From contig KZ538409.1 in assembly GCA_000934665.2 (NCBI GenBank), positions 1 to 64,000 on the forward strand: a stretch of DNA of 64,000 nt, read 5' to 3'. Below the pieces are notes generated by a model. It saw only the letters and a list, made by a program, of their open reading frames with translations. It made no database searches and was not told where the DNA came from. Position numbers and translations under genes: made by a program. Below, piece after piece: positions 2,111-60,156 of the stretch. This DNA is from Catajapyx aquilonaris (Eukaryota). Within the stretch, counting starts at the first letter, position 1; each line of letters starts with the position of its first letter.

Positions 2111-3048
2111 CTCTAGGGAAGATAGTTATTGAATATGCCTGTAACGTTATTTATGGATCTTATTGACCTAGCATGTGAAACTGAAGCCCAATGTTTATGC
2201 TTGGAACCAATCTCCTTTCTGTGTTAAACAATGCTGACTTTTTTTGAGTAAGTGTGTAAGGAAGTTGCACCTTGGCTTTGTTTTATGCTAAGCCAGTGGA
2301 ATTAGCTGTTGAAGCGTTCTTGACATTCAAGCAGACAATTGCATTGTCACATATGAAATCGCTACTTTCCATCTTAGAGCCATGCTGGATATGCTGAACT
2401 CTCTTGTAGGTGCTGTGGCATGATGTGAGGTTTTGCCTGTACAGACATGTGCCTAATAGGCCTATGAGAAAGCAAGCAAATAGTGTAAAGTATTAGAAAT
2501 TTGAGGGAAACGTTTCATCTTAATAAGGATTCCCACATTTACACTTTGCTGTCTAACACTTACTTTCTCAAATAAAAGTCAGCACTGACAGCTGAGCTAA
2601 TGCAGAAATATGCCTAACTGTTGATTGTGTTATCAGAGTAAGAGTGTTGTACTTGATGTATAAAGAATTGGCGTACTTAATGCAGATACAGTCAGATGGT
2701 GATGCAGTAGGACATATTCTTGTTGCGTGACAAAAGACTAGTTCAAATGGTCACGAAGAAGTTGCTGGTTGCCTTAATTTAAGATAGTATAACACAGCCA
2801 TGTATTCATTACATCACAACAGCAATTCTTAACTGCTGACATCTAGGGCATGATTAGAAGAGGAGTGTGACATTTTCTGTCATTCAAAAGTATTGTGGAA
2901 GGAACACGGAGAAAATTGATTCCTGTTGCACTTTCATGATTAGTTGTGCAGCCCTTAAAGAGGGAAAATTTGCACTCCAAATAAAAATCTGAATTGAGTG
3001 GGAAAGAATTGGGAGAGAGTATTATGATTGCCTCCTCCCATCTCCCAG

Positions 3049-3389
3049 GTGTGGTGGAAGGCCCTGTGGAGGTGTGGGCTACCCCCATTCCTGCAATCCA
3101 GTCTCCTCACCTCCCACAGCCAACTGCAAGGATCTCTCCTGCAGCTTTACTCCCTTCGCTGCCCCCTCACCTGACACCTCCTGCTCCCCGGCCAACAAGA
3201 GGCGGTACATCTGGTCGGAGCTTGTCCCTTCCTGACAAGGTGAGGCTGATATTCCACCACACCCGGGAGCGGCTGACTGAGAGGAAACTCTCCAGACTGT
3301 ACGGAATCAGTAAGACGCAAGTGCATCGGATACTGCAGTCCAGGGAAAGGATTCTGGCACAGTGGAATGGGGACCAGGAGCACATTTAG
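3049..3389 (+). CDS. Alternative terminal exon 1: Pro-rich linker plus CENP-B/psq-type HTH domain
   Basis: Acceptor cctcctcccatctcccag|GT, phase 1; RSLSLPDKVRLI...TERKLSRLYGISKTQVHRILQSRERIL; stop at 3389; AATAAA at 3727. Confidence 0.8.
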
Positions 3390-4329
3390 TTCACTGGTGA
3401 ACCTAAAGGATATTGACTGGGAAGTTGTTAACTGTTTTATTCAAAAGGTTTATTTTATTGCTGGGAAAAGGCATGTGAGAGGGAAGTTTTGGCTCGTTAT
3501 TGAAAGGTGATTTTAAGTGAAACATATTTTGCAAAGAGCTGAAACATGGCCATATTCAGGCCAGAAGGCAGAGGCAGAATGGTGTCATAGTGGTTATCGC
3601 GACAGCCTTTTGATCCCGAGTCAGACTTGGGAGTTTCTCGTGTGGAAAGTGTTTTGAAGGGTTCTTTCCATGTTCACTTTGGTTTTCTTGGGCTTCTTCC
3701 ATATCCTCCTATCAAAATCAGCAGCCAATAAAGTTGGGGATTTAAAAGAGAATCCCTTAAGAGAACAGAAGCCTATCATGGGGAAACCATATATTGTATT
3801 TGAGCCAGGAGGCTAGTTTTAAATGTGGTTTACTTTGTAAGACAATGAAGCATGTGCCTTAATATTTTAAACAGGGTGTTTGTGTGTGTAAATCCAAAGA
3901 GTTGCTATGCAACAATGCTTTAAAAATGAAGACCAAGCATTCTTCAAATATGTCTTAGTAAACTGACATGTAATTAAAATTATTTAATGATTATTATGGA
4001 AAGGAAATTTTAGCAACCAACTGGATGGTTGAGCTTATGTCGTAATTTGTTAAAAACTGTATTTTGATTCACATTGTGTATATGTATACCTCTTGATTGC
4101 AGTTTTTTGTCAATGTTGTGGAAACAATGTTTTGCACCCTCCATGCATAGACTTTTCAGTGTGAATAAAAAAAAAACATTTCAATTTTGTGATTGTAAAT
4201 AAAATCCAGTGGTTTCTGCAGCGTTCAACTGCTGATGATGAATGCGTCAAATAATTCGGGTGAAGATGAAACTAGAAGTTCTCTTGGTTGCTAGAAAGGT
4301 TTGATTGTCCCATTACTTCATCTTTCCAG

Positions 4330-4421
4330 TCTCACGCGAGGCCGAAAAGGGCAAGTCCAAGTGCAGTAAAGGAGACTCGTCAAAAATGCTAGAAGTTATA
4401 CTTAGCGAAAATGAAATCCCC
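4330..4421 (+). CDS. Cassette 2, small first exon (phase 1 in, phase 0 out)
   Basis: cttcatctttccag|TC...ATCCCC|gtgagtaggac; 92 nt open frame SREAEKGKSKCSKGDSSKMLEVILSENEIP; absent from the ORF track. Confidence 0.65.
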
Positions 4422-4868
4422 GTGAGTAGGACAGTTTTTTTGCACTTTAATTTCTTTTTTTGTTTTGTTTGACTTTTCTTTTATTAAGAACATAATGTAT
4501 TGGAATTGCAAGCTTTCATTTTTTTAAATTTTTTTTTGGGGGCTGTTTTAAATCAGATGGTGATTTTATTTAATTTTCTGTTCCGCCTTGGTTCCAATTT
4601 TATAATTCTGGAAACTTCTATCTTGGGTGACTTAAATTGGTGCTTCATCTCTACTAACCAACAGTTTTTGGTAGCTGGTAGTTGTATTAATCTATAAACA
4701 TACAAAGGGGATTAATAAAATCAGACTCGTTGCCCAATGTTATTGAATGATTAGACTACGGGATGTTTCTTGATACCTTGGTATCGGATTGCTGAGACTT
4801 GATGTAGGAACGTCGGATAATTTTGTGACTCAGTGAGAGGATTATGCTGGCACAGAGTAACACACACA

Positions 4869-5259
4869 CGGTGTTATGCAATAATGGGTCAGCCCACAAA
4901 AATGTCAAAATTGAGTTAAGCCCAGGAACATACACCCAAAGGATAGTACTTCATTCAGTTAAAATCAAGGTGGCGAAATCTGCATACTTCTGCCAGAAAT
5001 GACCGAAAAGTTGACTCATAAATGTTGTGCTTTGATGGTGTTATGCAATAATTTGTAAACCCACAAAAATGTCAAAATTGATCTAAGCCCAGGAACATGT
5101 ACCTAAAGGATCTTCCTTCATTCAGTTATTATCACGCCGCTGAAATCTGCATACTTCTCCCATAAATGACCAAAAAGAACATTGAATTGGTATGGCCTTC
5201 AAAGCTCTTTTTCTCAAACCTGTTCTCATGTGGGTTGACTCATTATTGCATAACACCAT
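4869..5259. mobile_element. MITE with internal tandem duplication
   Basis: TIR ggtgttatgcaataatgggtcagcccaca / tgtgggttgactcattattgcataacacc; left portion repeated from ~5035. Confidence 0.6.
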
Positions 5260-5985
5260 CCATTATAAGGTGGAAATTTAACAAATTTAATTAGTATTAC
5301 TGACCAAGTTCTAGATTGTCTTTATGTAAGCTTATCTTGCTTATTATTACTTAGTACTATTCCACCTAGCCATAATGCAAGTCACTGAGATGCACAAATA
5401 TATAGCTTGTTGGTCCGTGAACAGCGATAAAGGCTAAACAGTAAGTGCATAAATGACAGGTAGGGTTTTATACCACAGCAGCATATTTTTTCAAATAAAA
5501 GTAAGACTTTTAGAAAAAATGTAGTGTAACTTCAGCCTTGTATTAATTATGGTTCAAGGAAGTTGCTGCTGCTTATGGGCTTAAAAATACATGCAAATTT
5601 AAGTAAAAATAATTGCAATTACTCTGTATAGTTATGAGAAAACAACACTTCATCACTGAGAAGGTTGTAACTTTGGTAGAGATCAGCAAGTAAGCTTTCA
5701 TTGTGAGAATGAGGGAAGTGTTAGTAATAGAGTGAACTGCTGGGTCAGAAAAAATACATTCTAAAAATAATATTGTGGACATTGAGGCAAGTTGACAAAG
5801 CGTCAACCAACAGTTTCTGATTTAATTCACATTTGTCATGAACAAGGCCTGAAGCCAGCTTATAGTGGCTGTTCTTTCTTATCATGGGTAAGGTGTCTAA
5901 ACCATGCATGGGATGAAAGATGTAGTACTGGGAAAATAGAAGGGATATTATGGAAAATGGCGCCAAAAGAAACACAATGTTGCAG

Positions 5986-6633
5986 GATGAACAAGAGTTG
6001 AGTGAAGTTGAGGTGGCAGTCCTCTTGACCCCGGGCCCATATGCTACTCTTCGATACCTGCGCCGCTACATCAGTGCCCTGAGAGGTGCCAACCTGTCCC
6101 AGGTGTTTGGCCTTTTTAACAAGCTAGCCGGGAAGGGTTTTGGCACCTGCTTTGCTGTGGAACGCACCCTGGTATTTTTCAAGAAGCCTCCTCTTCAGCT
6201 GAGTGACCAGACCATGGGCCTGATTGAACCCTGGGTGGATGCCTATGAGTCTGCTTTCATGAAGCGGAACAGTGCCATCACCAATCACCAAGATGACAAG
6301 TTGAAGTCGGTGCATCCACATCTCCCACCAGATATGGTTTGGGATCCATTGCCAGTGACACCGGAAGCAAATATGCAGAACAAGCATGGAAGTCAAAATC
6401 AACCAGGGATGCAACATCCTCCCGTGAAGTCAGTTACGAAGCAGATAATCCACTCATCTGCAAAGCAAAGTTCTGGTGTGAAGCAGCAGACAAATTCATT
6501 CGGCATGCACCATTCAATGACCAAGCAAAATCCGATTGCACTCCAACATTTTCCGCCTAAACAAACTCCTCTCTCAATACAAAATGTGTCATCAAAGCAT
6601 GAGGCTAATAGTGATCCTAGGGTCACATTTTGA
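5986..6633 (+). CDS. Cassette 2, terminal exon: uncharacterised ~110-aa domain plus Q/H/K-rich tail
   Basis: Phase-0 acceptor caatgttgcag|GAT matches the phase-0 donor at 4421; EVAVLLTPGPY...KGFG...VERTLVFFKKP...QDDKLKSVHP; paralog at 10161-10526. Confidence 0.75.
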   Translation, partial: DEQELSEVEVAVLLTPGPYATLRYLRRYISALRGANLSQVFGLFNKLAGKGFGTCFAVERTLVFFKKPPLQLSDQTMGLIEPWVDAYESAFMKRNSAITNHQDDKLKSVHPHLPPDMVWDPLPVTPEANMQNKHGSQNQPGMQHPPVKSVTKQIIHSSAKQSSGVKQQTNSFGMHHSMTKQNPIALQHFPPKQTPLSIQNVSSKHEANSDPRVTF

Positions 6634-8054
6634 ATCCAGAGACAACAGATGAGAAGAGTTTGAAGGAAACAACCACATATGCCCACAGTTCTTTGGATTC
6701 GGCACAATGACAAATTAGGCAGGAAAATGTTGGTGATGGATATACAGTTGACTCTAGATATAAGAGACTTCAAGGGACTGTGGAAATCAGTATCCTAGAT
6801 AACAGAGGTTTCTTAAATCCAAATACACAGGGACTTATGAAAGTATGCTGGGACCAGCCTTTCGAGTTGGCTATAACTGAGGGTTGCTTATAGCTGAGGC
6901 TCTTATATCTGGAGTCAATGGTTAATGTTGCAGTGTTAATGTGTGTTGTATAAAATGATAGAACGATGGAAAAGCTTAGAAGTCGCATATGTTAGTTCCA
7001 TTCTGTAAATAGCGGTCCACTGTTGATCATGAAAATGACTTTGATAATCCACATCTAGTGTCACAGCTGTACAAGTGATTTCTGAAATTAACTTATGCAT
7101 CCACATTTTCGAGTGTGTATGGATCCTGTGTCAGTGTTAGTATGTACAAGATGTGGATTTGAAGAGTCTTGAACTGCAGCTGTCCAGTTTTGTAGGATGG
7201 CCCAGGCAGTATTTTCAAGGATTTTAAATCACGTGTTGACAAGCCTGTGTTGACTCCATCACTTCTGGAAAGATACAACTGTGACCGCTCACTTGACAAT
7301 CTATTATATATTAGGCATAATTAGGGTATTCTCCATATCAATATTCACCAGCAATATTGCTTACTAGTGGATATTTCTGCTCTTCATTATGCATCGAAAA
7401 AATATTGCCTTCAAAGATCTTCATTCTTAGGAGCAGATATCATTGATATTAATAAGTGCAATTTGTGGCATCTGTTATGGCTGCAAAACTTTGGCTTCCT
7501 TTATATGTTTAATCATATTGTTTTTTAACGCATTCCAAGTAGCATTTGTAGTGTCATGTGCAATTTGGTTTATTTTGAAACCGCCACTTACTAGGTAGAG
7601 TTAATTTATATTTGTTTTAGAGTGGGTATAGGTGCTATTTTACACAGGCTTGGGGCTTATGAAGTAGTTGTTGAATTGTACATTCCAAAAGAAATGGTTG
7701 ATTTCTGCAACAAAAGGGAAATATTTAGACACTTTTTGGGTCTTCCTATGGATAAGTCTCAACTGTGATACTTGAGAGGAAAATAGCATGGTTTTTAATA
7801 TGCAGGTCTGTACATTTGTATTGGTTTTTCCAAGCCATACTTAAAGTGCCGTTTGTACTTGCAGTGCCTCATGTTACCTTATATAATGTATGTTGTATTT
7901 TTATTATTGCTTGAGGGGCCTCAATGAGATTGGAAAGATTTAAGAAGGAGGAAGTTTTGTACTAGAGTGCATGTTCTGTTCCATTTTTTTTTTTTTGAAC
8001 ACTTGAGGAGGTAATTTTTTTGAGTTTTTTCTATGTTATTCCTCCTCTTTCCAG

Positions 8055-8134
8055 GCGGACTGGATGGTTTGCGAGAATTATTACGGAACATGGGGGATTC
8101 TTGTGACGTTAATATTAACGACGCCAAGATGTCT
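8055..8134 (+). CDS. Cassette 3, small first exon (phase 1 in, phase 0 out)
   Basis: ttcctcctctttccag|GC...ATGTCT|gtgagtaggac; 80 nt open frame GLDGLRELLRNMGDSCDVNINDAKMS; donor context identical to that at 4422. Confidence 0.65.
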
Positions 8135-8887
8135 GTGAGTAGGACTGTAAAATTGCAATGTTTTGGAAAAGAAAACTGCCAAACTTGACTGTTGCTTTCC
8201 AAATAATGTAAAGAAAAAATTTCCTCCTTCACAATTTGAGTTTTTTTGTTGTTGTATTTGGTGGTGGATTAATTTGGGGCAGCAGCTTGCATGCTGGTAG
8301 GATACATGGAGGATAAAATCTGGATGAGACAAGGGCAATAATTGTTGATAACTTAGATTTATTATCAGTGTTGAAATGAACTTGACACATGATTTAGTAT
8401 TGTTTTCCATTACCTGCACTTTTGGTTGCATTGTGTGACTCGATTTATTGATAATGATTTTGGAACAAAACTAAATTTTACATCACAGGTCACCTACCAG
8501 AGAGTAAGGATTTCTCAGATTCCTTGAAAAAATTTAATTCATTGTTGTATGTAAAAATTCATGAAATTTTAGTGCTTTCTAAATGTCATTAGTCAGCATA
8601 TGGATTGTAACCGTTTTGCTTCCGTTGTGCATTTACAATGATTTACTGACTAGCCTTTGTCTAAATTTTTGTTAGGATATGTCTAGATTTGGAATAGGTT
8701 ACACAAAGTCAAATTGGTCAAGTTGCAGCAGATTTCTTTGCTACCCGAAAATTAATCCATTCAACAAAATGATGGCTAAATCGTTTGTTAATGGTAATGA
8801 GTAAATATGATGAGATGGACAAGAAAGTGAACATTTGGTCACATGTGAAGAAAAAGTACAGGAAGTACCCGTTTTACCCCAGTAATT

Positions 8888-9092
8888 TTTTAAAATTTAT
8901 TTATACCCCAATGGGAGAATCGGTGCTCCATTAGGGGGGTAGAGTACCAGTACCACCATTGGATGGGGCCAAGGATAGGGAAGGAAGGAAGCAGCAGTGG
9001 CCTATTATACAGAAACAACCCCGGAATTATCATGGGGGGACCGTGGAAAACCACGGTCAGGGTTGCCGGCCCTGGGATTCGAACCCAGGACT
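8888..9092 (-). mobile_element. 5'-truncated tRNA-derived SINE
   Basis: 17-bp direct repeat GTTTTACCCCAGTAATT at 8871-8887 and 9093-9109; B-box gggttcgaatccc on - strand; similar to the copy at 59718. Confidence 0.75.
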
Positions 9093-9444
9093 GTTTTACC
9101 CCAGTAATTGGTTCCAGCAACACTGCAATGTAAAACGAATCGGTGTAAATCGAGACAAAATAATGTAAGTGAAGGAGATGGGTTCCAAAATTTGCAACAT
9201 TTTTGCACAGATAGTATTAATATTGCTGTTTTTAATGCCCAGTATTTGAACCGTTTAATACACACGTTTAATATGTAAGGTTCTGGGTTGAGGGTCATCA
9301 GGTCCTGAGGGCTCCCTTTGACAAGAAATTCAGCACACGTAGTGTATTGTAACAACAGGTGCAGTGCTTTGGGGTATATATACAGGGTGATCAAACTTTT
9401 TTGTCGTTTTAGTTATTGACAAATTCGGCCTAAGCTGCTTATGT

Positions 9445-9604
9445 TGTAGCGCGTTACCTGGCAACTCCGTCCGACGGGCCAATTCAAACACGAGCATGTG
9501 GAGAGTGCTTCCATTGTTGCCAACAGTGGCAACAATGGAAGCACTCTCCATATGCTCGTGTTTGAATTGGCCCGTCGGACGGAGTTGCCAGGTAATGCGC
9601 TACA
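9445..9604. repeat. Near-perfect ~160-bp palindrome, probably inside a Tc1/mariner-type MITE starting near 9383
   Basis: tgtagcgcgttacctggcaactccgtccgacgggccaattcaaacacgagc... mirrored on the right; tacagggtg terminus upstream. Confidence 0.75.
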
Positions 9605-10160
9605 CTCATGCTTTGTGACAGAAATGTAGAAGTGTTTGGATTGTCTAGTTATTTTCAATTTTGTCATAATTTTAAAATCACGATAAAAAATTTAAAGGTA
9701 ATTTTGAAACTGGTGTTAATGTGAAAACGGCATAAACTGAAGTGGCATAAAATGGGCACTTCCTGTGCAGTATTTGAATCTTCATTGTTCTTGTCTAAAT
9801 AATAATATGATTTCCCAAAAAATATTTGCACATAATCCAGGTAGATTTCCTGGCTATATTTGAAGACCACAATGCAATATGGGCCATCTGTCATTTTTAC
9901 CAAATAGATTTCATGGCATACCATCTTCCATCTGGTGGATACCTATCTGTATAAAATGCAAGAGCTAAAAAGTCACTAGAAGCATTTGAACCAAGCTTCC
10001 AAAATTTCTTTAATTATTATCGGAAACAGAAATAGTTTTATTTGCTTTTTGAACATTTCACTTGGCCCCCTTATTGAATTGCTGTCTTCATTTCCTTCTA
10101 TACACACATGCTTCCAAAAAGCAGAGCTCACAGTCACGTCCACCTGGTGCAACAATGCAG

Positions 10161-10526
10161 GACTCAGGAGATGGAGAATCCAATGGTGGGACTCTGTCCA
10201 GCCTGGAAGTAGCAGTCCTTCTGAGCCCCGGCCCATACGTGACTACCCGCTACCTGCGTACTAACACAACCCGCTTCAAAATGGGGAAGAATGACCGTGT
10301 GGAGAAAGTGTTCAAGCATCTTACCCACAAAGGGTTTGGACAGTACTACAAGGTGGAAAGAACTATGGTATTCTTCAAGAAGCCTATGTGGCGCCTCCAG
10401 GGTCCAACGGCAAAAATGCTTGAGGGAATTTGGGAGTCTTATGCGGAAAAATTTGAGGCAGTCAACCACAGGATCTCAGTACAGCAGGATGGAAAGCTCA
10501 AGGCCATACATCCATTCCTTCCATAA
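10161..10526 (+). CDS. Cassette 3, terminal exon: second copy of the uncharacterised ~110-aa domain
   Basis: Phase-0 acceptor caacaatgcag|GAC (alternative gcag|AGC at 10125); about 50/110 identities, ungapped, to the 5986 exon by manual count. Confidence 0.75.
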   Translation, partial: DSGDGESNGGTLSSLEVAVLLSPGPYVTTRYLRTNTTRFKMGKNDRVEKVFKHLTHKGFGQYYKVERTMVFFKKPMWRLQGPTAKMLEGIWESYAEKFEAVNHRISVQQDGKLKAIHPFLP

Positions 10527-13500
10527 ATTCATCAGTTATGATGATCCACACAAATTAGTTGGCCCTAGATGCTGAACAATTTTTACACTTGACTTGTTGA
10601 CTGTCACTTCTTTGTCACAGGATCCAACAGTTGTGAATGAATCACTTTTGAAATAGGTGCCACTTGATTACTCATAAAGGCTGTTTTAGTGAAATGTTAC
10701 TATGCAATGTAAAATCATGTTCCTTAAAAAGAATTTTGATGTCGAGTTTTTCGTGTGACTATTTTCAACAATTCAGAACAAGTTGGACGTGTATATTTTC
10801 TTAGGCGGCTTCTGAATGCATCCACTTCCAACAATTTGGAAGGGAAGAGGGTTGTACGGTTGGTCATACATGATGTATGAGTTGTAATGATACATGTTGT
10901 GACTGCTTGTTGGAAACACAGAGTGATAGTATTGTGTGTACCCCTGAACTGGAACTTCTGCTGTTGACAAGATAAAACTACATATTTTCTTTCAAGCATG
11001 AAAGTGAGTTTACTAAAACCTAATCATGTTATGCATTTATACTGTGTGCATTTTTCTTAACAAAAACCAGGGTTGTACTTGACAAATAAGTATTGTTGAT
11101 GTTAATGTTACCATTGAGGCCTCTCATATGTCTTCCACTATTTTTATGACATGATATTAAAGACAGAGATTATAAAATGGTGAGCGGATCATGACTGGTT
11201 GCCTTCGTATGAAACCATAAGGGCATTTTTTTTGAAGGCACATTTAACATTTTTATACTACATTCCTAAGATGTTTAGAGAACATGAATATGCATGGTTG
11301 CCTAATGTTCTGGATCAACCTTTTCCCCCATCCCCAGTAGCACTCTCAGAACGTGAATTTGCCTTTATCCTAAGTAGTGCATTTACTTGCATATATGCTG
11401 CATTATGCTTATTGGCATGAAAATCATGGACAAATTTGCATACATGTATATCTGAACTATATTTGTGATCAAGAAAAGTTTTGAGTAGGTGGTGATTCCA
11501 TGACATGTGAAGCAGAGGGGTGAAACCTTCAAAAGTCATATAGGTGAAACAGGAAAAGCAAAGTGTAGTGAAGGTCAACAATGGTGACAAGGCAGTATGA
11601 CTTAAAGGTCTGACAGTTATGTTCGAGGTACCAAGTTCCAAAATATTTGGAAACTGTTTCACAGGTTTTTTTCTATACAACATTGTCGTCAACAGACATT
11701 GTAGTGTTTATTCCCACCTTATATTTGGGATTTATTAAGAAAATACCTGTGCCTGAATTACTTCCACCAGAAATCCCGTTGAAGAAAGTTATAAATTTCC
11801 AGTTCACACTCACTTGTGCTTCAAGTTTATTTCTTGTCACATAAAGACAATTAGCCAGATCAAAATTTATTTACATAGTAAATTTGCCATAACTCCTGAA
11901 AGTATCCCTTCTAGGATTGTTTGTTTCCGTCATGATAATTTTTACTGAGTGTGTTCTTAATCATATAAGATAAGAAGTGAAACTCGTCTTTTGCCTAATT
12001 ACATCCCCAACCAAGAATATGGATTTGGAGGTCAAGGTTCTGCAATTTTTTCCAACTTAATATGGCCATGGTTAGGAGCATTGGAGAATTTTTTTTTGTA
12101 ATCTGGCAATGTTAGAAAAAAACTTAAGCTTTGGAGTTGTTTATTAAAAGTAATATTTAATGTAATAAATGACTACAACTCAGGCTGTACAATATGACAA
12201 TGAATTCATACATTAATTCCATTGCTATCAATTGTTGTGAACAATTTATAACCATAAAATATTGCTCATTATATTCAGTAAAAAAATTCATGAAAGGTTT
12301 TCAAATGCTCCTAATGCTTTCTGTGGTCGTTTGAAGTTTGAAAAAGTTCATTTGTAAATCCAGACTTCTCAGTTTGGCATCTGAGTAGGCAAAAGCGGAG
12401 TTTCACTCTTTTATCTCATATTAGGAGCGACCTCATTAAAAATTATCATGATCTGAGCTGAATACAATCCTGGTAGAGATCCTTTGTATGTATACAAAGC
12501 CCACTGGCATTGCTGTTGGGGTACCTGTTCCCATGTGTCTTGTCTGGATACTGGGGCATAATAAATGTACAAATTGATTGTCAGTCATGTGTGATAGTCA
12601 TGTAAAAGACACCAGATCATGATATTTTAGCAATCTTATTGCATGTAGTAAACTCATGAGCACATTTCAGGCACAAATAAGCCAAAATGTTTTATCCAAG
12701 CATGCCCATTGCAATGGCTTAATGCAAATATCATGGCCAGTAATAATTGCAGTACATATGCAACAAGACCACACACTACCAAGCAAATAAATCAACTTAC
12801 ATCAACAATAATGATTATTATTGTTGGTGTCGGCATGTTCCTATAGGAAATTTTGTTCATTCCTGCATATCATTGCTTCATTTTGCTAGTTATTTATCAG
12901 GTGTAATTTGAAGCCTTTTATTTCTCTCAATCTGACTCATTGTGTAGTCTGTTACAAAATCCTTTTTGTGACTTTCACACAGATGACCTGCAGCATCTTG
13001 GAAATGAAATATTTGGTCTATGCTTGAAGTACAAACTTGGCTTCCCAAAATATTAAGTAAACAAAATACGTACAGGATATCATTAGTTCTATGTTCAGAT
13101 GTGTCATGCATGGCTAGGTCATTTTGTCCAGGACAGCATCCAAGCAGTTGCTGTTCCTCTCAAACTCCAAATCATGTGATCGGACCCAGATCCTTAATTT
13201 TTGTGACTTCACAAAAGCAGCAGTGTGCAAATTGCTCAGTAGTGCAAAAAAATATGGGCTGAAACCTCACCACCTCCCTTGAACATCACATATGCAAATG
13301 TAATTTACCCAGAAGACATGGGCATATTTTGCAACCTATATGCAAGTAATATTGTAATACTAATTTTTGTAAATGCTTCGGACAGATGCGGTTGAAATAT
13401 TGGTCTATAACTGACAAGAATTTTTTATAGGTGCATTTGCAACTTTCCTCACAGCCAGTGAATCTCTTGGATAATGATATGCATTACTAAGCTTCAGTTA

Positions 13501-13937
13501 ATTTTGTACTATTTTGTAAGAGCAATTGTTCCATTGTGGGTACTAATATTGTACTATTAGATCTCCAAGTGAAGGGTTGTCTGGGTTAATAAAAACAATC
13601 ATGAATATGTAATTGTTGAATTTTATACACTGACATGCATGAGATTATTATGAGTGTAAAAGGAACGTGTTTCAGGCATGCAGCTTAGGACTTTTTCCAC
13701 TGCACCACAGGACTAATTAAAATCCACCAAACAGATCAGGTAATGAAATGTGAAAAACAAACGGCAACATCCATCACTTTAGCTAGTGTTAAGGTTAGAA
13801 GGAAAAACTTGTGGTCAGTGTAGCATTTGCAAAGAAATTGCCCAATCGTACTGGAAATACATAATGGTACGTTCACTCATTTGATTTCAAAAATGAAATG
13901 TTAAGAGACATTAACTGATTGGGCCATTTCTTTGCAG

Positions 13938-14128
13938 ATTTGGGAGGTTCGTTAGAGGAGAACACGAGCTGGATGTGTAGAATCCGGTCCACGCAACGGC
14001 ATCCGGAGCAAAACAAAATAGCTGCCATCAGAGACATAGAGGCCGGGGAGTCAGTAAAAAACACTAGTCTTAAGTACAATATCCCCGAGAGGACTTTGAG
14101 AAGATGGAGAAATCAACTTACGCAGTGA
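13938..14128 (+). CDS. Alternative terminal exon 4: psq-type HTH
   Basis: catttctttgcag|AT, phase 1; EQNKIAAIRDIEAGESVKNTSLKYNIPERTLRRW. Confidence 0.8.
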
Positions 14129-14576
14129 CATGTTTAGGACACTTCAACTGGGTGTTTTATTGTGTTAAAGGGGTAATGTCAGAGTTTACGTAGACCATTC
14201 AGCTATGTGCATTGAGAAGTTAATTGATGAGCGGGTTAGCTTAACTAGGCACAGTAAAATTTGATAGACTTCCCAAGATGACTGCTGCTTGATGAACAAC
14301 AGTCTCAGAAAGACATTTGTATTTCTTCAATAATAATTTGATTGTCAAATTTTACTGGGGCCACTTGACATATTCAGGAGTAGTGCTTGATGCAAGGTTA
14401 GGGTTAATTTGCTCAATCTTGCAATACATTTACAGACCGATATTAGTGGGTGCTTCCCTTTCTTCATGTTCATTGTTATAATGGAATAAAAACAAGCTGG
14501 CACAAATGCACGTATATTTGTATGGGAGATGAGTGGCCAGTTGTGTTACTACAAGAGTGGGCATCTTCCGTTGCAG

Positions 14577-14788
14577 GTTGGATTCAGTCGAGGATGAGCG
14601 CAAACTATACGGCCAGTGATCTAAAAGCCGCCATAGATCTGATAGAATCGGGTACCATGGGCATCAGGGCTGCTGCTAGGCAGTACAGAATTCCATACGA
14701 AACTGTTCGCAGGAATTATGCATTGCAGTTATCAGGCAGAGGAACCATGCAAAAGATGAATGCTCTGCCATGGAATTCTCAGTACTGA
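14577..14788 (+). CDS. Alternative terminal exon 5: pipsqueak HTH
   Basis: catcttccgttgcag|GT, phase 1; YTASDLKAAIDLIESGTMGIRAAARQYRIPYETVRR. Confidence 0.85.
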
Positions 14789-15052
14789 TAGACACCTAAT
14801 GAAATGGGCATTACTTTTTTTGTGTTGTATTCCTACATTTATGTGATGCATAAACAACTCTGTGGTATGCGCGTGTTCTTGTGTGAAGATCAAAACTGCA
14901 CACATGATGTTGGAAGGCCAATGTTTACCTGGTGCATCATTGCCTGGTCACAGGTGATGCAAAAGTGGAGTTCTCTTAATGAAACATCCTGTAGGGTGTT
15001 GTCAAGTTGTGCTCAGTGCAGGTGTGACTGCTTCATACTTCGTATTCCAATA

Positions 15053-15494
15053 CAGGGTGAAGGGAAACTTGCGGATATTCGCCAGGTAGATTGATAGTAC
15101 TCGTAAAAGTAATATTGGGATGTACAATTAGTTTTGGGCTCCGTTGCATAGTTAATGTGTACGGCGCCGTCAAAGTTTCGTGATGTCACATCCGTTCCGC
15201 CAGCTTCAAAGAAGCAAATGTCAGTTCAAGGGCCTCCGGTCCCTTGCCTTTGTCCCCTAACACATCATCCATATGCGATAGGTAATCAAATCCCGTCAGA
15301 GTAAGAATCTGGGTAAGAAACCCTTGCACTTTGTCGTTTTTACTTCATACTTTACCATCTGGCCCTCTACACTTTAAAGACGCCATACGCATTAACTATG
15401 CAACAGAGCCAAAAACTAATTGCACATCCCTATATTAGTTTTGCTAGTACTATAAGTTTACCTGCCGATTGTCCATGAGTTTCCCTTCACCCTG
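15053..15494. mobile_element. Tc1/mariner-type MITE
   Basis: TA|cagggtgaagggaaact ... agtttcccttcaccctg|TA with long subterminal inverted arms. Confidence 0.75.
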
Positions 15495-16616
15495 TATATT
15501 ATTCTAAATGCCATTTTTTTGTAAGATCCCAAATTTTATACATGCAAAATGGCATTAGTCTGTGATGATAATGATAAGGGACCTTCTGAGTATTTCAGAT
15601 TTAAGAAATTGTAGGATTTTCTTCCCATTTTCTGATTGATAAGGTAGTCTGATCATCATGGATGCAAGAAATTGTCTTGTGAATGAAATTCAGCCATATT
15701 GGTGTACACTCAAGTACAGCATCTTGGTGACATTAATGAGGAATTATTTATAAGCAAAAAATGCCATGTTCAGGAGGAGTATGTTCTGGCATGATGATGA
15801 GAGAGAGAATGTAGTGAAAATTCAATTGTGGAGGGTTGCTTTGTTTACTTGAAGGAAGATTTTGTGAATATTGTGGTACAATTTAATCTGTTGCAGTGAT
15901 ATTTTGAGACTAACTGCCTATGTTAATCAGTTAACTTTTAGGAGTTATGAGAAATATTACCTGCTGATATTATGAATTGCCATGAATTTCCAAGGCATTA
16001 CTGATAAGTTCAGAACAATTGGCATCTGAGATCAATGATTAATCCAACTTTGTAAGCTACATCTTGTAGTGGTTAAAAAATAAAATGTTAACAGTTAATA
16101 TTTTGATAGTGAAAAAGTAAGTAAAGGTAAATGCTTTAAAGTAACTTCTAAATAATGAGCAGCTTTGTGACAAATAATCACTAACCAAGTGACACTTCAG
16201 TTGTAATACACTGTATAATATATACCATATGTGTAACAAAAGTCAGCTTAAATCCTTATCAGTGAAAATTTCACAGACCCTGACCATGGTTGCCTTGCCT
16301 TCTAGTGTGATAGGGAGTTGTATATACAGTTTTAGAGCACATCTAGTAGGGTTACTGAATGGATATAACTACTACACTTCAAGATTTGAGTTAGAGGTGA
16401 CTGAAGTGAATGTCCACAAGATTTTCATGGATACTAATGTAAATGGACTTTTGTTATATACATAGTGCGAAGTCAGTAAGACGACTGTTGGTTTGCATTT
16501 GCCTTTCAATGCCATGTCATTGCAGTTCCCTGGCCCCCAGCTTGATATCTATAATACCCTTTCTTGATGGTGAGTCCCAAGGTGAGTTCCCCTTCTTCCC
16601 TGGCCTTATCTTCCAG

Positions 16617-16900
16617 GTTGGAATAGCGGGCGCAGGTACAAACAGTACGCCCAGGTCGATCTGGCCCAGGCGCTGGATGCTGTCACTGCAGGGATCTGCT
16701 CGGGGAAGGGAGCCAGTCGCAAGTACAACATCCCTTATAACACTCTGAGGAGGTGGATGGAGAGATGTGCCATCAGGGCCAGGGGCAAGAGGGGGAGAAG
16801 GAGGAGGTCTGAGGTAGTCGGGGGGGCAGGGGACAGAGGAAGAGGAGGACAGGAGGCGGTGGCTGGAGAGTCAGCCAGTGGGGGTGAAGGAACTAGTTAG
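16617..16900 (+). CDS. Alternative terminal exon 6: pipsqueak HTH plus basic/Gly-rich tail
   Basis: ccttatcttccag|GT, phase 1; manually translated GWNSGRRYKQYAQVDLAQALDAVTAGICSGKGASRKYNIPYNTLRRWMERC...GRRRRS...EGTS*; this frame is not in the ORF track. Confidence 0.85.
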
Positions 16901-17523
16901 GAGTATGGGAAGTGGGAGCAGACATATTTACTCGTGACTCAGTGCACCCATTAACCCAAGTGTAATTTTTTGCTCCATATTTTTTCTAATGTAATTAGTA
17001 ATTGGAGATCTGCTTGTACCAAGCATGAATTTTTTGTGTGCTGCATCACTTGGTATAAACAGATACTCAGGTACTAATCTCATATTGAAAATATTAAGCA
17101 AAAAGTCTTGTATGTTATACCAGCTTTAAGAAATGCCCGAAGTGGGATTTGGTAATGAAGTTGATATGCGCTTTGTGCTGTTTTTTAATTAATTATGAAG
17201 CATTGTGTATGGAGATGCCTACAGTTCCTGCTGTTTTTGTTGTGCTAGGATTTGAGTGTTATGTATGGAATTCAGTGTCACAGTGAGGTGTTATTAGTTG
17301 GAGAGGACAGTGGACATTGCTTTTCCAGACAAGTGATTTTCAGTAGTGATTTTAGAAGTGTCAAAAGTGTGGATTCTGGGTACAACTAGCCAAAGGACAA
17401 TTTGTGCAGTATATCCAAAAAGAATAAATGTGATGTGAAATCCAAAAGTGACTTTATGTTTAAGCACAACAATTTTTTCATTTGCAGCCGGGCTTGACTT
17501 AAATCTTTCCACCTTTTTTTCAG

Positions 17524-17840
17524 GCTTGGTCTGGTATGACCCGGAAGATACCCAGCTAGAGAGTGGCTATACATTCACTGCAGGCACCAGCGCCAGCACC
17601 ACCAGTAGCAGGTTGACTACTATGACCCCACACAAGAAGTCCCGCCGCTTGAAGCATGCTGATGATGTCCTCCAGAAGGCTGCTGACCTAATAATAGCAG
17701 GGACTTCTTACAGGAAGGTCAGCCAGCTGTTTGACATCCCGAAGAGTACTCTGCATTCATTCCTCAGGATTAGAATGGGATTGAAAAAGAACGAACCAAA
17801 GACCAAGGGGCATGCAGTGTTCCCACCTAGTACTGTATGA
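17524..17840 (+). CDS. Alternative terminal exon 7: pipsqueak HTH
   Basis: ttccacctttttttcag|GC, phase 1 (second in-frame acceptor at 17488); HADDVLQKAADLIIAGTSYRKVSQLFDIPKSTLHSFLR. Confidence 0.85.
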
Positions 17841-20800
17841 GAGGTGCAGAGTATGTGGATTAGGGTCTGTGTGATGTCATTTTTTTAAATAGCTATCTTC
17901 AGAATCATTGGCTCAAAAAAGAGGATATCACCTTTGAACAGATAGCTATTTTAAAGTAGTGACTACAGGATGGTTGGAAAGGTTTTAACCTTCTTGACTT
18001 CTACATCTTTTTGGACTGATGATATGATATAGATGATCTATTTTATTGATGAGGACCCTTGAACAGTGGACACTTCATGCAAAAGCATAGAAGTATATTA
18101 CTTGCAACAGAATGTCACAGCCATAAAATATATCATCAGTAGCATGTGACGTAGTCCAGCAGGAGTCAAGGTCCCAGGTACATATTCAGATTTGTTGAAA
18201 ATTTTAAATGCCAAAGAAAGAAAAGGCTCAGCAATGATATCATGACTTTAAGAGAAACTGCATTCAATTTACAAATTGATATCTAAAAATTGGGCAAAAA
18301 AATCTGGATTCAGAGGGTGCATTTCTGAGAATTGAAAGGTAAGCCCAGGGCAAAAGGTCAAGGTCAGGAAAAATTTGTTGGCTGCAGTTTCTAGTTCTTA
18401 AGGCAAAGGGAACAGCCAGCGCCCCAAATGGCACTGTGTGAACTCAGGTTAATTTTACAGGCGATCAAAACATGCATGCATATGATGTATTTATGTTTCT
18501 AGAACAATCAAGGAAGTTATTTTATCATTGTCATACTGGGCTTGAACCAGTTACATAGAACTAAGGGTGTGGTACGTATCTGCCTCACATAAGTTTGAAA
18601 TTTTAAAATCCAACCTGCAAAATATGACACATCTGTTGATCATTCACCTGCCAATAGACATCTTTTCACCATCAACTAACTTAGATCAAGACAGGGATAT
18701 TGGGCTGGTGATGTGAGAGGACAATTTACACTTTGTGAAAACTATCGATCTCTCTTGTCACTATAGTGACAGGAGACAGATTGATGATAATGGTCACTTG
18801 CTCCCTGGAATGGTGTGACCAGATGGACCCCTTCTTTTCCCCAATTCATGCCAGGTGATGCCCCTATCTAGTTGTTGACAAAACTTATCCAGACTGACTT
18901 TTTGCTCTGGGGTTACCTTTCAATTCTTAGAGAAATGGATGGCACCATTGGAATCGAGATATTTTTTGCCAAATTTTTGAGAGCCCAAGCTGCACATTGA
19001 GTGCAATGACCCTTTCAATGCTCAAGTATAATGTTTCGCATGAAAATGTTTCCAAGGTTATATCTTTCACAGTTTTTCATATATATTTAGTGTTGAACTT
19101 TAATACAAGTCTGTGGGATTTTAAACGTTCCAATCAACCTGTATATTGGACTGATTTGTTGGAGAGCCAAAGCTACTATATTAGAATGATTATGTCTTGA
19201 ATCAGTGGCTATGTTGGTTCATGTGTATGCGTGTCTGAGTCTTAACATTTTCTTATTATCAAAGGAGTCACGATAATGGCATTCTAGCCAATGTCGAAAA
19301 TCAGAGGCATAATCATTATTAATGTAATTCTTGGATGCGCAGGAAAAAGAGCATAAATCAAAAAAGCTCACATGTCAGGAAAGCAGATTATCTTAAATAC
19401 TGGACTTCTTGTAAAGATGACATACTCTTGCTCGCAGATTTTCCTAGCCTGGTTTTAGGGCTTGACATGCAGCCTTATGGCAGAACCAAGAGGGACTCCT
19501 TGTGACTATAACTGGCATAACAGGACACGTAACTCAATTTGCACATTTTCTGACTTGTGCTCTTTTTCCCGTGCATCCGAGAATTATGCTGGGGGTTAGG
19601 AGTAAAGGTGACTGACTGTGAGTATAATAGGAAGATTTCCTATTACCTGTGCATTGTAAACTTGCCAAGATGTATTTTCTCAAAATTCACGTTGTGTGAG
19701 GTAGCACAGAGTCATCCTAAGACCATAACTTTTCAGCACATGTTTTATATGGGATTTCAGACTGAAAGGGGTTAGAATTTGACGGTATTTTTATTCTTTC
19801 TTGTAATTTACACCAACCTGTAAGACATTTGGAGCTTCCATCTCCCAGTTTATGTGCCTTAAAATTGAAAATGCTGTGATTACTTTTCTAATAAGTTTGA
19901 TTCTTCATGGAGATTTTATTTCCTGTACACAAAAGATTCTAAACCCTGGAAGTCTAGTTTCGTTGATACTGTAGAGTATATCTTGTTTCATTGATACTGT
20001 ATTTGGATAATGTTTTGCTATGTTATCCACTATTCTGTGTAGTTCATTGCAGAATACTTCTCTTTTTTAATCATACGCAGTTATGCTGACCGAACTTGTC
20101 ACGTAGTACAAGAAAGTGAACCTTGATGGAGAAAATAATAATGTCACTATTATTATCCAGAGATTTATGTAACATTTTCTCATATGTTAATTTCTTAATG
20201 CTGTCTCAAATTTCTGAAATCGATAAGCTTGCTCAACATTTTTTTAATTTTTTTAATTTTTTTAATTTTTTTGTCTTCATAATATGACTAGTGTAAAAGT
20301 TCATACTGCTTACCCAACAAATCTGTGTGCCCAACAATATTGCATTCCAGCCTTACGTGATACTTCTGTAGATCCAAAAGTCACCCTTGGCCAGTCAACT
20401 CATGCCTTGATATTCCGAGTACCAATCTTCAGAACCAGAATGTGATATAATTGGACACAAGGCTTTGTGGGTCATGCAATCCTTTACTGACCTGCCAAAA
20501 TATTACGGGTCAAAAAAGTGCTCACTGCAGCTCGTGGCTGGATGACTCCTGAGTTCAGGAGAAGAAACCTGTGAGAGTGGATAGAAATACTATTATGTGG
20601 TGTGGAGGTTGGGAGGGTGAGAGGAAGAAAAATGATGTGTCAATGCCACATAATAAATTTCCTGGTGCACACAGACTCCTTTCATCACTCGAACAGAAAT
20701 CCTGGTAGACAGTACATGTTATTAATAGTTACAGGATCTGAAATTATGATCAAGAATTCTTCCACAGTTCTGGTGTGAGGGTGTATGCCATGTTGACCAA

Positions 20801-20910
20801 AAAAGTTTATGTTAACTTGATAATCATGAGGTTAAATGTTAAATCTGTACTTTCTCTTTGAGCGTAATAATAAACGGGGGATTAATGATTTGTGTATTAT
20901 TCCATGTGAC

Positions 20911-22067
20911 TCAAGTTGGCGGATTAAGATGTGTAGTAGGGGTGTCAAGCAAATTTTCAGGGACTGCTGCTGGTTGTAATTTTTCTTTAGTATCATCTAA
21001 AGGATCTTCTTCACTGAGACAAGCAGATGCTTGCAAATGTTCATCCATCTGAAAGGGAGTGGAACCAGTTATATTAACTTCGATTTGTTGACAATGCTGA
21101 AGAATATCTTACCCAACTTGTACTATCCATATCTTCACCAGTGATCTCCTTCTCCGAATCAGATTCAGCAGGTTCCAACTTCACAATCACTAGTTGACAC
21201 CTCTCAGCTACTGGCTCAGTCACTGGCACATTGTCTTCAGTCTTCGGTTCTATTACTGGTGGCATTTTGGGTGATAATCTGCTCTTCTTTATTGCTGGAC
21301 AATCTTTGCTTTGCTTCCTCTTGCAAGATCTACATCATGAACATAGCAAAAAAATGTGTCTCTGTTACGTTGGTAAAACTCTCATGTGCATGCCTGAGTC
21401 AAGTTGGCATTCCAATAAAAGTCTCATTCGGAGGGCAAGCATGGCATAGGCAGTCTACCATGGCATGCAGCCATGTGACAACTCAATCAGGATGAGACGT
21501 GCAGGATTACATTGATGCGAATAGCCTGACAGTGAGCCAACTTTTGGGTCGCTCTATAGCACCATACAAGACTTGTCACAGATACTTGCAAGCAAGAAAA
21601 ACAACATGCCTGATATGAGTAACTGGCTCCTCTTCTGCAACTTCTGCAGGCATGGACAAACCCCTTATTTTTAGAGCCTCTGCCGCTTTGATAAGGGGCT
21701 GCAGGTTTTCCCTCTCTACACTGACCAGGCCTTTGTACATGAAGTCAACAAGGGCTTCCACCTCCCAGGACTTGATGTCCCTCAGAAATATAATGGGATG
21801 AGGGCAGGGATTCTCAGTGAGGATCTTTTTAAAGTATGAGGAGCAGGCAGACAGAACCATTTTGTGGCAGTGGAAACTGTGGCCTTCTTCACAGGTCAGA
21901 GTCACATCAACAAAGTGCTGCTGGGCCAGAAGGTCTGAAAACATTTGGTTCATGCACAGGGAATGCTCCTTCCAGTGGATCTGGAGCAGTTGGGACAGCT
22001 GCTGTGGCACTGGTTTGAGTGGACGAGCTGCTGTACTTGGTGTTGGTATGACAGCATGATGTGTCAC
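20911..22067 (-). CDS. Tramtrack-group BTB/POZ protein; exons 22067-21610, 21329-21113, 21048-20911
   Basis: QLLQIHWKEH...FVDVTLTCEEGHSFHCHKMVLSACSSYFKKILTENPCPHPIIFLRD...LVDFMYKG...AAEALKIRGL; splice phases chain in frame (0, 2, 0); acidic tail and no C-terminal DNA-binding domain. Confidence 0.85.
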
Positions 22068-22429
22068 CTACGAGGGACAAATACAGGATATCTAGTGGTT
22101 ATTTTTTATTTATTTTTAAAAATCAACCTGTTCATTTTAAGCAGTGCCTTTTGAAAAGTTACTTTTAGTGGATTTCAAAAGTATCAGCTACTAGTAATTC
22201 TCAGTAGAATAATTCATTCTGGACCTAAAATGCAATGAATTTATGAGCTTAAAACATTAGGAGTGATCCTTTCTGAACCACTGGGACTTGAGGTCAATGG
22301 CAGCAATTGTTAGACCCTCCTGCATTGGTTTTAAAAAATGGTCTTCTAATATACCAAATATTAGCATCTGGTGTGTGAGAAAACCTGTAAAAGTAGGTGT
22401 AACTCCTGAGCTGCAATTACAAGGGAACA

Positions 22430-22780
22430 ACCAAGTCGATCGCGTCCGATTTAGTTGAAACTTGCTTGAGGGGTCACTGATGTGCGATTGACACTGTGGT
22501 GGGAGTCCTAGATGACACTGTTCAGCCATTTCCGAGATATGAGCGACAGAAACATCCGAATTTTGTCCGCGCGTATAGGGGCCTTGCAGGACCTTGCAAT
22601 TGTCCCTTCCCCCCCGACACCTGTATGCGGCGGTATGCACAGCCAAAATTAGCATTTGTTTGTGCTCATATCTCGGAAACTGCTGGACAGTGTCATCTAG
22701 GACTGTCACCACTGTGTCTATCGCACATGAGTGACCCCTCAAGCGAATTTCAACCAAATTGGAGGCGACCGACCTTGGTC
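22430..22780. mobile_element. Foldback MITE-like element
   Basis: accaagtcgatcgc...gaggggtcact mirrored by agtgacccctc...gcgaccgaccttggt; explains the paired similar ORFs on opposite strands. Confidence 0.7.
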
Positions 22781-23024
22781 TTTACTTTGTTAGTGTGGAA
22801 AAATCACGAACCACCATGGACATTAAATGGTTATTACATTGAGTTGTCCATTTGAGTCTGAAATATATGGTAAACCAAAATAGTGTATTAATTACCACAA
22901 TAGTACAAGGGCATGCTGATAATTTTTGCCTCCTTGTACATAGAATCTGTAATATGATACATATCACAGGACAATGTGGGTAACATCAAACGAGAGCCAG
23001 GAATGTCCTACACAAAACCATATA

Positions 23025-26021: not shown

Positions 26022-26420
26022 TTAAAGAGTTACCTGCTTCCTCTTGGGCTGCTGCTGATGTGTAGGTCTATCCCATTCTGGTGCCATACCAGTACTCGAG
26101 GCCGCAGATGTAGAAGAAGAGTGGTAATATAGGCACCTCTGGTGCGGTTCACTCCTTTGGTGCTTATCAAAGGCAGGATGGTTGAAATTGGACGTTCCCT
26201 TAACAAAGGCGGAATTTGGATCAGCAACGGAGCGGTACCCCCGGCAAACGGAGCACCACATCAGCTGCTCCACCTCATCAAAGGCCAACCATTCGTAATC
26301 AAGCAACCACTTCTCTTGGAATTGCCGCCCTCCGGGTCTATTGTTGTGGGACACCTGGCGACCATGCTGCTGTACTTGATGAATCCTTCGGCCGGCCGGA
26401 AACGAGGTCATTTTCGACAT
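26022..26420 (-). CDS. TTF-type (hAT-transposase/ZNF862/C17orf113-like) zinc-finger exon; probably the 5' coding exon of the BTB gene
   Basis: RQFQEKWLLDYEWL...MWCSVC...AFVKGTSNF...DKHQRSEPHQRC; strong acceptor at 26462, ATG at 26420, donor CAG|GTAACT at 26034 (phase 0) just before the stop. Confidence 0.75.
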   Translation of the reverse strand: MSKMTSFPAGRRIHQVQQHGRQVSHNNRPGGRQFQEKWLLDYEWLAFDEVEQLMWCSVCRGYRSVADPNSAFVKGTSNFNHPAFDKHQRSEPHQRCLYYHSSSTSAASSTGMAPEWDRPTHQQQPKRKQVTL

Positions 26421-30103: not shown

Positions 30104-30310
30104 TTTACTGCTGTGCTCTTTGGGATAGGATAGGGACGGAAGGAAGCGGCTGTGGCCTATTAATTACGGAAGCAACTCCGGAATTTTCCTGGAAGGACCA
30201 TGGGAAACCACAGAAAACTACGGTCAGAGTTGCCGGCCCCGGGATTTGATCCCAGGACCTCCCGATTAGCAGTCGGGCGCCGTATCCCCTCCTCCAAACT
30301 GCTTCGGTGT
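30104..30310 (-). mobile_element. tRNA-derived SINE copy
   Basis: Nearly identical to 32577-32779; head caccgaagcag...gactgctaatcgggaggtcctggg shared with 59718. Confidence 0.75.
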
Positions 30311-30319
30311 TTTTTGACA

Positions 30320-30898
30320 ATTTACCCACATACGTATGTGTTTCAGAATCTGTTCCATTAATTTCTCGGTAAGCACCAGCAGTGTGCAAGAACTGCTTAT
30401 TGTCCTTGATGCCTTTGCAAATTCCATGGAAGCAGCTACAGACGCATTACCTGAAGTGCCTCTATAGAGTCTAGACTGTTAGCCAAATTGAAAGTTTGTG
30501 CGTGCTGCTTCTCATCCTGGAACAGGCGAATGGAGCACGCGAAGAGCTGCATCTCAAGGTTGTCCCATATGGTTACGGCCATTCGATGGAAATGGGATGG
30601 GAGCAGTAGGGCATCCTGGTAGTTGGCTAAACAATGTTTTAAATAGTTCACCAGAGGTTTCATGGCTTCTACTGGTTCCTTCCTGTTGAGCAGGAGCTGG
30701 ATTGATTCTTCGACCAGATTCTTGATGGTGTCTTGAATCACGAGCTCTACTTTTTGGAACAAGCCATTGAGCGTGGATACCATCTGATTCAGTCTGGTTT
30801 CCCTTTCCTCTTCTTCTTCGAGCTCCTTCTTGCAAGATTCTGCTATTGCAGGACTCAGAGACCTGTGAGTACATCCACTCGTGTCATTTCTCATTTGA
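30320..30898 (-). pseudogene. Munc13-4/BAIAP3-like MUN (MHD2) domain fragment with a frameshift
   Basis: EAMKPLVNYLKHCL...HFHRMAVTIWDNL...IEALQVMR, then +1 frame CFHGICKGIKDNKQFLHTAGAYREI; recalls Munc13-4/BAIAP3 PLMxYL...F.R....W...L..FFHAEGKGL; cut by a SINE. Confidence 0.55.

Positions 30899-45343: not shown

Positions 45344-45382
<39 letters not shown>

Positions 45383-60125: not shown

Positions 60126-60156
<31 letters not shown>

Follow-up and report, generated by a model that had tools for sequence, protein, structure and literature searches.

Organisation of the locus

A stretch of 64,000 nucleotides from Catajapyx aquilonaris (assembly GCA_000934665.2, contig KZ538409.1, positions 1 to 64,000 of the forward strand), referred to below as the window, carries on its plus strand, between positions 3049 and 17840, a row of alternative 3' end units, or cassettes, of the kind found in BTB transcription factor genes. 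With about 40% G+C and long introns, the window resembles arthropod nuclear DNA. The row comprises seven units, each closed by a stop codon, which is the arrangement that characterises loci of the lola and mod(mdg4) type. Five units are single exons that encode a helix-turn-helix (HTH) domain, and two would each consist of two exons, the second of which encodes a winged-helix-like domain. The units are as follows:

3049–3389, plus strand: cassette 1, a single terminal exon with a proline-rich lead and then an HTH_Tnp_4-like HTH; TAG ending at 3389
4330–4421, plus strand: proposed exon 1 of cassette 2, 92 bases, phase-1 acceptor, phase-0 donor GTGAGTAGGAC
5986–6633, plus strand: proposed exon 2 of cassette 2, phase-0 acceptor, winged-helix-like domain of about 110 residues, glutamine-rich tail; TGA ending at 6633
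8055–8134, plus strand: proposed exon 1 of cassette 3, 80 bases, phase-1 acceptor, phase-0 donor GTGAGTAGGAC
10161–10526, plus strand: proposed exon 2 of cassette 3, phase-0 acceptor, paralogous winged-helix-like domain; TAA ending at 10526
13938–14128, plus strand: cassette 4, a single terminal exon, phase-1 acceptor, HTH_Tnp_1/CENP-B_N-like HTH; TGA ending at 14128
14577–14788, plus strand: cassette 5, a single terminal exon, phase-1 acceptor, HTH_psq at 24.2 bits; TGA ending at 14788
16617–16900, plus strand: cassette 6, a single terminal exon, phase-1 acceptor, HTH_psq at 25.7 bits, basic tail; TAG ending at 16900
17524–17840, plus strand: cassette 7, the final terminal exon, phase-1 acceptor, HTH_psq at 31.2 bits; TGA ending at 17840

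Both strands were scanned for a strong acceptor combined with an open frame, and no convincing further cassette was found.

The helix-turn-helix units

Domain content was assessed by a Pfam scan of the 233 stop-to-stop frames of at least 45 residues in positions 1–24000, 111 of them on the plus strand and 122 on the minus strand. HTH families match five of the 111 plus-strand frames and none of the 122 minus-strand frames, and all five HTH domains claimed in an earlier, preliminary description of this DNA are thus confirmed. Their assignment to the psq and CENP-B families, which that description had also proposed, stands for four units. The gathering scores are 20.4 bits for HTH_psq (PF05225), 21.2 bits for CENP-B_N (PF04218) and 27 for HTH_Tnp_4 (PF13613). 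The units at 14577, 16617 and 17524 pass HTH_psq, and the 13938 unit passes CENP-B_N (24.4 bits) as well as the cut-off of HTH_Tnp_1 (29.5 bits). The 3049 unit belongs to neither family: it reaches 27.1 bits against the cut-off of 27 for HTH_Tnp_4, and its CENP-B_N score of 13.8 bits lies below the cut-off. At E ≤ 0.01, HTH_psq has no match in the units at 3049 and 13938. Within the window, the 16617 unit has paralogues in the units at 14577 (E 3e-7) and 13938 (E 9e-5).

Splice acceptors and reading phase

Seven acceptors, each a polypyrimidine tract followed by CAG, had been proposed ahead of exons starting at 3049, 4330, 8055, 13938, 14577, 16617 and 17524, together with a phase common to all of them. 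The acceptors are located as proposed, and all seven are phase 1, with the first two exon bases forming the last two bases of a codon. Candidate sites were ranked by a home-made and crude score, composed of the pyrimidine content from -23 to -4, the base before the AG and a penalty for violation of AG exclusion. By this score, each of the seven acceptors outranks every other AG that precedes the domain in its open frame, and the seven range from the 91st to the 99.9th percentile of the 1527 AG sites on the plus strand of 1–24000. The 3049 acceptor, for example, has a score of 11.0 and a percentile of 0.995. Background plus-strand sites with a score of at least 8 and an open frame of at least 45 residues (n = 43) fall into phases 0, 1 and 2 in numbers of 16, 14 and 13. 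Because this split is even, the score has no bias toward phase 1, and the chance of finding a single phase at seven independent sites is about (1/3)^6.

The preliminary description had further given each unit a stop of its own. This is correct for the five HTH units, but not for the exons at 4330 and 8055, which meet a stop only if they are read into the intron.

The proposed two-exon units and a nameless domain

The exons at 4330 and 8055 both end in a phase-0 donor. Since these donors match the phase-0 acceptors at 5986 and 10161, the four exons, judged by their phases, most likely form two cassettes of two exons each, 4330–4421 with 5986–6633 and 8055–8134 with 10161–10526. The 11-mer GTGAGTAGGAC at the two donors has just these two occurrences in the 64 kb. 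The introns behind them, at 4422–4445 and 8135–8158, open with this 11-mer and share a TTGCA a few bases further on. The bodies of the 4330 and 8055 exons do not align to each other, and the common intron starts would represent either a remnant of a duplication or a conserved intronic signal.

The second exons, 5986–6633 and 10161–10526, are paralogous, with 45% identity over 110 residues (E 4e-26), and had been overlooked before. Their acceptors occupy the homologous place in both paralogues, ATG(TTG)CAG|GA at 5986 and 10161, in phase 0; for the latter exon an alternative acceptor lies at 10125.

The domain encoded by these exons matches no Pfam family. Among 1.84 billion representative proteins, two matches were found at E ≤ 0.001, of which one is credible (P0063, E 4.6e-4); when searched back against the window, P0063 matches the two paralogues with E 7.6e-11 and 8.9e-7. 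The second match was dismissed as a repeat protein. In a protein atlas search, the highest score was 0.78, for phage proteins, which is under the meaningful level. AlphaFold models of both paralogues, each built from an alignment of three sequences, show a helix-strand-helix-helix-hairpin followed by three helices, with predicted local distance difference test (pLDDT) values of 77 and 83 and predicted template modelling (pTM) scores of 0.72 and 0.79. In wide structure searches with both models, winged-helix proteins fill nearly all of the top 50 rows. The best structural match of both is 3u1d, with middling scores (Z 6.5 with a root-mean-square deviation of 3.8 over 101 residues, and Z 6.6 with 5.7 over 110), and these searches returned no chain at Z ≥ 8. 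The best Foldseek E-value is 0.047. On the strength of these models, the domain is probably winged-helix-like and putatively DNA-binding.

Homology to the ends of insect BTB proteins

Three of the HTH units have relatives in the C-terminal parts of insect BTB proteins. The set used for comparison consisted of the 62 insect BTB proteins that match a BTB exon on the minus strand of the window (the local BTB exon, described below), seven of which carry HTH_psq in precomputed Pfam annotation. In local phmmer searches, the 17524 unit matches the C-terminal part of 47 of the 62 proteins (best E 2.5e-9), and the 16617 unit matches the C-terminal cassettes of 42 (best E 1.7e-8). The 14577 unit matches one (E 3.7e-4; pairwise E 3e-4).

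The most informative case is a pair of proteins from Halyomorpha, P0002 and P0003, which have residues 1–247 in common and then continue into two different psq-type ends, one starting with V and the other with G. This split would fit a phase-1 junction, at a presumed intron position, with a shared first base G. The 17524 unit is 36% identical over 73 residues to the variable end of P0003 (E 3e-9), and the 16617 unit matches the end of P0002 (E 2e-5). Thus, in insects, ends homologous to units of the array are attached alternatively to a shared N-terminus with a TTK-like BTB head. A remnant of a linker exon was sought in the window with tblastn, using nine of the 62 BTB proteins and P0063, and none was found.

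A joint between a cassette and a BTB sequence

Contigs of a public sequencing run, X1, were compared with positions 2950–22900 of the window. The kind of this run is not on record; its contigs amount to 32 million letters and contain 41% of the sampled words of 13900–22100. In one X1 contig, with a depth of 15.8, position 14576, the last base before the 14577 exon, is joined to position 21730 on the opposite strand, within a BTB-coding sequence. In this one contig, the 14577 acceptor is used and its partner encodes BTB.

The two sides of the joint differ in their relation to the window. No differences from the window are listed for the cassette side, whereas the BTB side (21730–21875) and the local exon disagree at 17 of 146 bases. 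Of these differences, 12 fall on third codon positions and are silent; the remaining five lie in five separate codons and lead to five conservative residue changes. The BTB sequence of the contig is therefore not the local exon but a second, constrained BTB gene that is absent from the window. Over 48 residues, 56 of the 62 insect BTB proteins are more similar to the contig copy than to the local one, one is equally similar to both and five are more similar to the local copy; in an example from Hemiptera, the contig copy has 38 identities versus 34 for the local copy.

The acceptors at 3049, 4330, 8055, 13938, 16617 and 17524 have no joints in X1, and none connects 4421 with 5986 or 8134 with 10161. 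No weight is given to these blanks in view of the patchy cover; bins without cover are 5614–6279, 6946–8277 and 20932–21597. The remaining joints in X1 are two at inverted repeats (15166–15408 and 22514–22719) and four skips of 78–288 bases with non-intron ends. The two inverted duplications in this region, one with arms of 127 bases (15050–15176 and 15371–15497) and one with mirrored open frames (22257–22781 on the minus strand and 22481–22855 on the plus strand), both yield X1 contig joints between opposite strands.

The ends of the contig pieces were also compared with AATAAA signals. Among the eight pieces listed out of 152, three stop 8–12 bases past the start of a plus-strand AATAAA (13588, 14485 and 20869), for which the chance is 0.012 per position, and none of the eight has a minus-strand signal within 40 bases of its left end. 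The pieces that lie behind cassettes are:

10238–12036 and 12420–13596: after cassette 3; the latter ends 8 bases past the start of the AATAAA at 13588
14193–14497: after cassette 4; ends 12 bases past the start of the AATAAA at 14485
piece ending at 20879: after cassette 7; AATAAA at 20869

Contigs as such cannot show RNA ends, and these positions give a weak hint of separate RNA 3' ends behind the units at 10161, 13938 and 17524. The 3' untranslated region of cassette 7 possibly extends to about 20879. Behind the 3049 unit, AATAAA signals are present at 3727, 4164 and 4198.

The convergent BTB gene on the minus strand

The preliminary description had placed the shared exons of the array outside the window. 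The plus strand of the window indeed contains no BTB exon, but a BTB exon on the minus strand had been overlooked. It is the sole BTB sequence in the 64 kb, is oriented toward the array and belongs to the following gene model:

20911–22067, minus strand: convergent BTB gene outside the array (PF00651, E 8.8e-25), three frame-consistent exons
22067–21586, minus strand: exon 1, BTB domain, phase-2 donor CAA|GTATCT
21329–21113, minus strand: exon 2, phase-2 acceptor, phase-0 donor TGG|GTAAGA
21048–20911, minus strand: exon 3, phase-0 acceptor, 45 codons, TGA at 20911–20913

Because its three frame-consistent exons reach a stop of their own, this gene can be regarded as a separate, self-contained and diverged gene that encodes BTB alone and lies tail-to-tail with the array. 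The donor of its second exon, at 21113, is phase 0 and therefore cannot serve the phase-1 acceptors of the cassettes. The TTK motif FxLRWN, as defined in PMC11426971, is degenerate in the local exon, which reads LQIHWK at this place. The remainder of the local BTB domain is 54–57% identical to insect TTK-like BTB domains, its best relatives among the 62 matches. Since the first in-frame ATG of the gene lies downstream of the degenerate TTK motif, an upstream coding exon is likely. The local gene may have arisen by duplication of the head of the array.

Interpretation of the array

Taken together, these findings make it probable that an arthropod BTB transcription factor gene has its variable 3' region on the plus strand from 3049 to 17840 and its head off-window, most simply upstream on the same strand. 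A genuine lola-style variable region is the most likely explanation of the exons, phases and domains, and for all seven units we infer a common donor. The isoform locus envisaged in the preliminary description is thereby supported in so far as alternative end-exons with DNA-binding domains are lined up for a BTB-type gene, but two of its units are not psq/CENP-B modules. The BTB identity of the head, which had been offered as a guess, is supported indirectly, by the insect homology of the psq cassettes and by the one contig in which BTB is joined to 14577, but the local BTB gene is not that partner.

Under this interpretation, one phase-1 donor would be spliced to one of the seven end units, each of which would supply a stop of its own and probably also a separate poly(A) site. 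The resulting isoforms would combine the same multimerising BTB head with different DNA-binding tails. Five of the tails would be three-helix HTH domains of the psq/CENP-B kind and two would be winged-helix-like tails encoded by two exons. The default mechanism would be ordinary alternative splicing in cis, coupled to alternative polyadenylation.

Several observations weigh against this interpretation. The joint in the X1 contig sits inside the BTB domain, after ...FMYKG, and with the coordinates 14576 and 21730 and no shared letters, the BTB frame hits a stop seven codons past the joint. By these coordinates the joint is out of frame, and the molecule as reported would therefore not yield a BTB-HTH protein; exon skipping or mis-joining may have produced it as a by-product. 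Furthermore, the joint concerns one of the seven acceptors, in one contig of one run of unrecorded kind, and its BTB partner is not in the window. In the phmmer searches, none of the 62 BTB proteins is matched by the units at 3049 and 13938 or by either winged-helix-like unit, attempts to retrieve longer proteins by querying with the 14577 and the 17524 unit were unsuccessful, and the homology to insect cassettes is measured by pairwise and small-database E-values. In addition, an ATG is kept directly ahead of the proposed acceptor in both winged-helix-like exons, and because of this conserved ATG these exons could be separate small genes.

One of the alternatives is a composite that we regard as unlikely: the cassettes would be separate units trans-spliced to an off-window BTB gene, the out-of-frame joint would be a by-product, and a lineage-restricted winged-helix-like domain would have been recruited into the array. 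Closely related, and likewise improbable, is the view that each cassette is transcribed on its own and that its acceptor is joined in trans to donors of a BTB pre-mRNA made elsewhere or from the other allele, in the manner of mod(mdg4) and lola. The BTB partner was found neither upstream of the array (3 kb) nor downstream of it (46 kb), and the odd donor inside the BTB domain, with its out-of-frame joint, would be easier to reconcile with promiscuous joining than with an orderly cis isoform. However, there is no positive evidence for joining in trans, shared exons more than 3 kb upstream are a simpler reading, and insect gene models predict like isoforms as ordinary cis products.

An antisense arrangement like that of mod(mdg4), in which the minus-strand BTB exon of the window is itself the shared head and the plus-strand cassettes are separate transcripts trans-spliced to it, is very unlikely. 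The position of this exon, 3.7 kb past the last cassette stop, on the opposite strand and facing the array, would suit such an arrangement, as would a possible phase-1 GT right after the BTB domain (AGG G|GTTTGT), which could supply the phase-1 acceptors. This is countered by the 17 mismatches between the contig partner and the local exon, by the three-exon frame that runs to its own stop, by the phase-0 donor of the second exon and by the degenerate LQIHWK motif in place of FxLRWN. Finally, it is hardly credible that the HTH frames are relics of pogo-, Tc1- or Harbinger-type transposons or independent small genes with a coincidentally shared phase: the best families of the 3049 and 13938 units are of transposase type (HTH_Tnp_4 and HTH_Tnp_1), the winged-helix-like frames retain their initial ATG and short inverted repeats abound in the region, but none of the 233 frames of 1–24000 contains a transposase catalytic domain in Pfam, no inverted-repeat pair was found to bracket any HTH unit as terminal inverted repeats of a transposon remnant would, the best acceptors share one phase in seven of seven cases, two units are homologous to BTB-linked insect cassettes and a contig is joined exactly at one of the acceptors.

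Other features of the window

Downstream of the array and its convergent neighbour, the plus strand carries exons of an anoctamin (TMEM16) gene at 44409–63242 (Anoct_dimer E 6e-26, Anoctamin E 8e-32). An open frame on the minus strand, 26022–26552, encodes a zf-C17orf113 zinc finger (E 2e-11), a type of domain that is often linked to domesticated transposases. A repeated element is found at 8890–9610 and 30105–30446, with similar peptide strings (…IPGPATLTVVF…) in its frames. Its first copy contains a near-perfect hairpin with 78 bases at 9445–9604, and the summed depth of X1 contigs reaches 399 at 8944–9609; it is probably an abundant element resembling a short interspersed nuclear element (SINE) or a miniature inverted-repeat transposable element (MITE). 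A (CA)n-type microsatellite at about 32.4 kb is visible as a VCVCVC… frame. The window contains 133 N in total, in gaps or masks at 31551–31674, 33701–33707, 34714 and 60479.

Comparison with known exon arrays

The design of the array is already known from lola and mod(mdg4). According to PMC11426971, TTK-type BTB factors frequently occur as isoforms distinguished by the DNA-binding domain they carry, and lola has 20 isoforms, 17 of which have different zinc fingers. Trans-splicing at mod(mdg4) and lola is likewise described (PMC11426971, PMC4387717, PMC6237743). Drosophila lola resembles the present locus in that a BTB head is combined with one out of numerous alternative 3' exons, each with its own DNA-binding domain and stop. 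The variable domains are C2H2 zinc fingers in lola, whereas they are HTH and winged-helix-like domains, in seven units, in the window. Drosophila mod(mdg4) is similar in that its TTK-type BTB head is served by an arrayed set of alternative 3' exons, but its variable domain is FLYWCH. It also has antisense exons, which the opposite-strand BTB exon of the window recalls, although this exon appears to belong to a separate gene and is not the partner found in the contig. In the Pfam scan, no zinc-finger or FLYWCH family matched any of the 233 frames of 1–24000 at E ≤ 0.01, and for this reason the array is orthologous to neither lola nor mod(mdg4).

The Pipsqueak/Bric-a-brac class shares the combination of BTB with a psq-type HTH, and three units of the array pass HTH_psq. 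Proteins of this class carry the psq domain or domains in their constant body and are not known to have them in exchangeable end exons. A probable counterpart is an insect BTB gene with psq-type ends, whose names include 'bric-a-brac 2 isoform X3' and 'longitudinals lacking H/M/V isoform X2' in Halyomorpha and 'protein abrupt' in Tribolium. It has a TTK-like BTB head, a single C-terminal psq-type HTH and at least two alternative ends on a shared N-terminus, and its ends are homologous to the 16617, 17524 and 14577 units. Judged by this homology, the array probably belongs to the same gene family or is the counterpart of this insect gene, with its head off-window. The insect gene models have two ends, in contrast to the seven units here.

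In the literature searched, no description of a psq-based cassette array was found. New at this locus are its HTH ends, in number and in kind, a winged-helix-like domain that has no name, and a neighbouring BTB gene that has diverged.

Significance

Alternative ends are a known means by which TTK-type BTB factors of arthropods gain further DNA-binding specificities. In the worked examples these ends carry zinc fingers (at lola, broad and fruitless) or FLYWCH (at mod(mdg4)). If the interpretation given above is true, the locus adds an HTH-based array of the lola/mod(mdg4) design, with seven ends versus two in the insect gene models; as the design is known, this would be no great surprise to the specialist. 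It would be a compact test case for the growth of such arrays by tandem duplication of end-exons and, possibly, by the capture of HTH domains of transposon type. The off-window partner and the diverged BTB copy lying tail-to-tail with the array also make the locus a place to ask about trans-splicing of BTB genes beyond the two fly genes. Should trans-splicing prove true here, the mechanism of the mod(mdg4)/lola type would extend to a third, HTH-based locus outside the flies.

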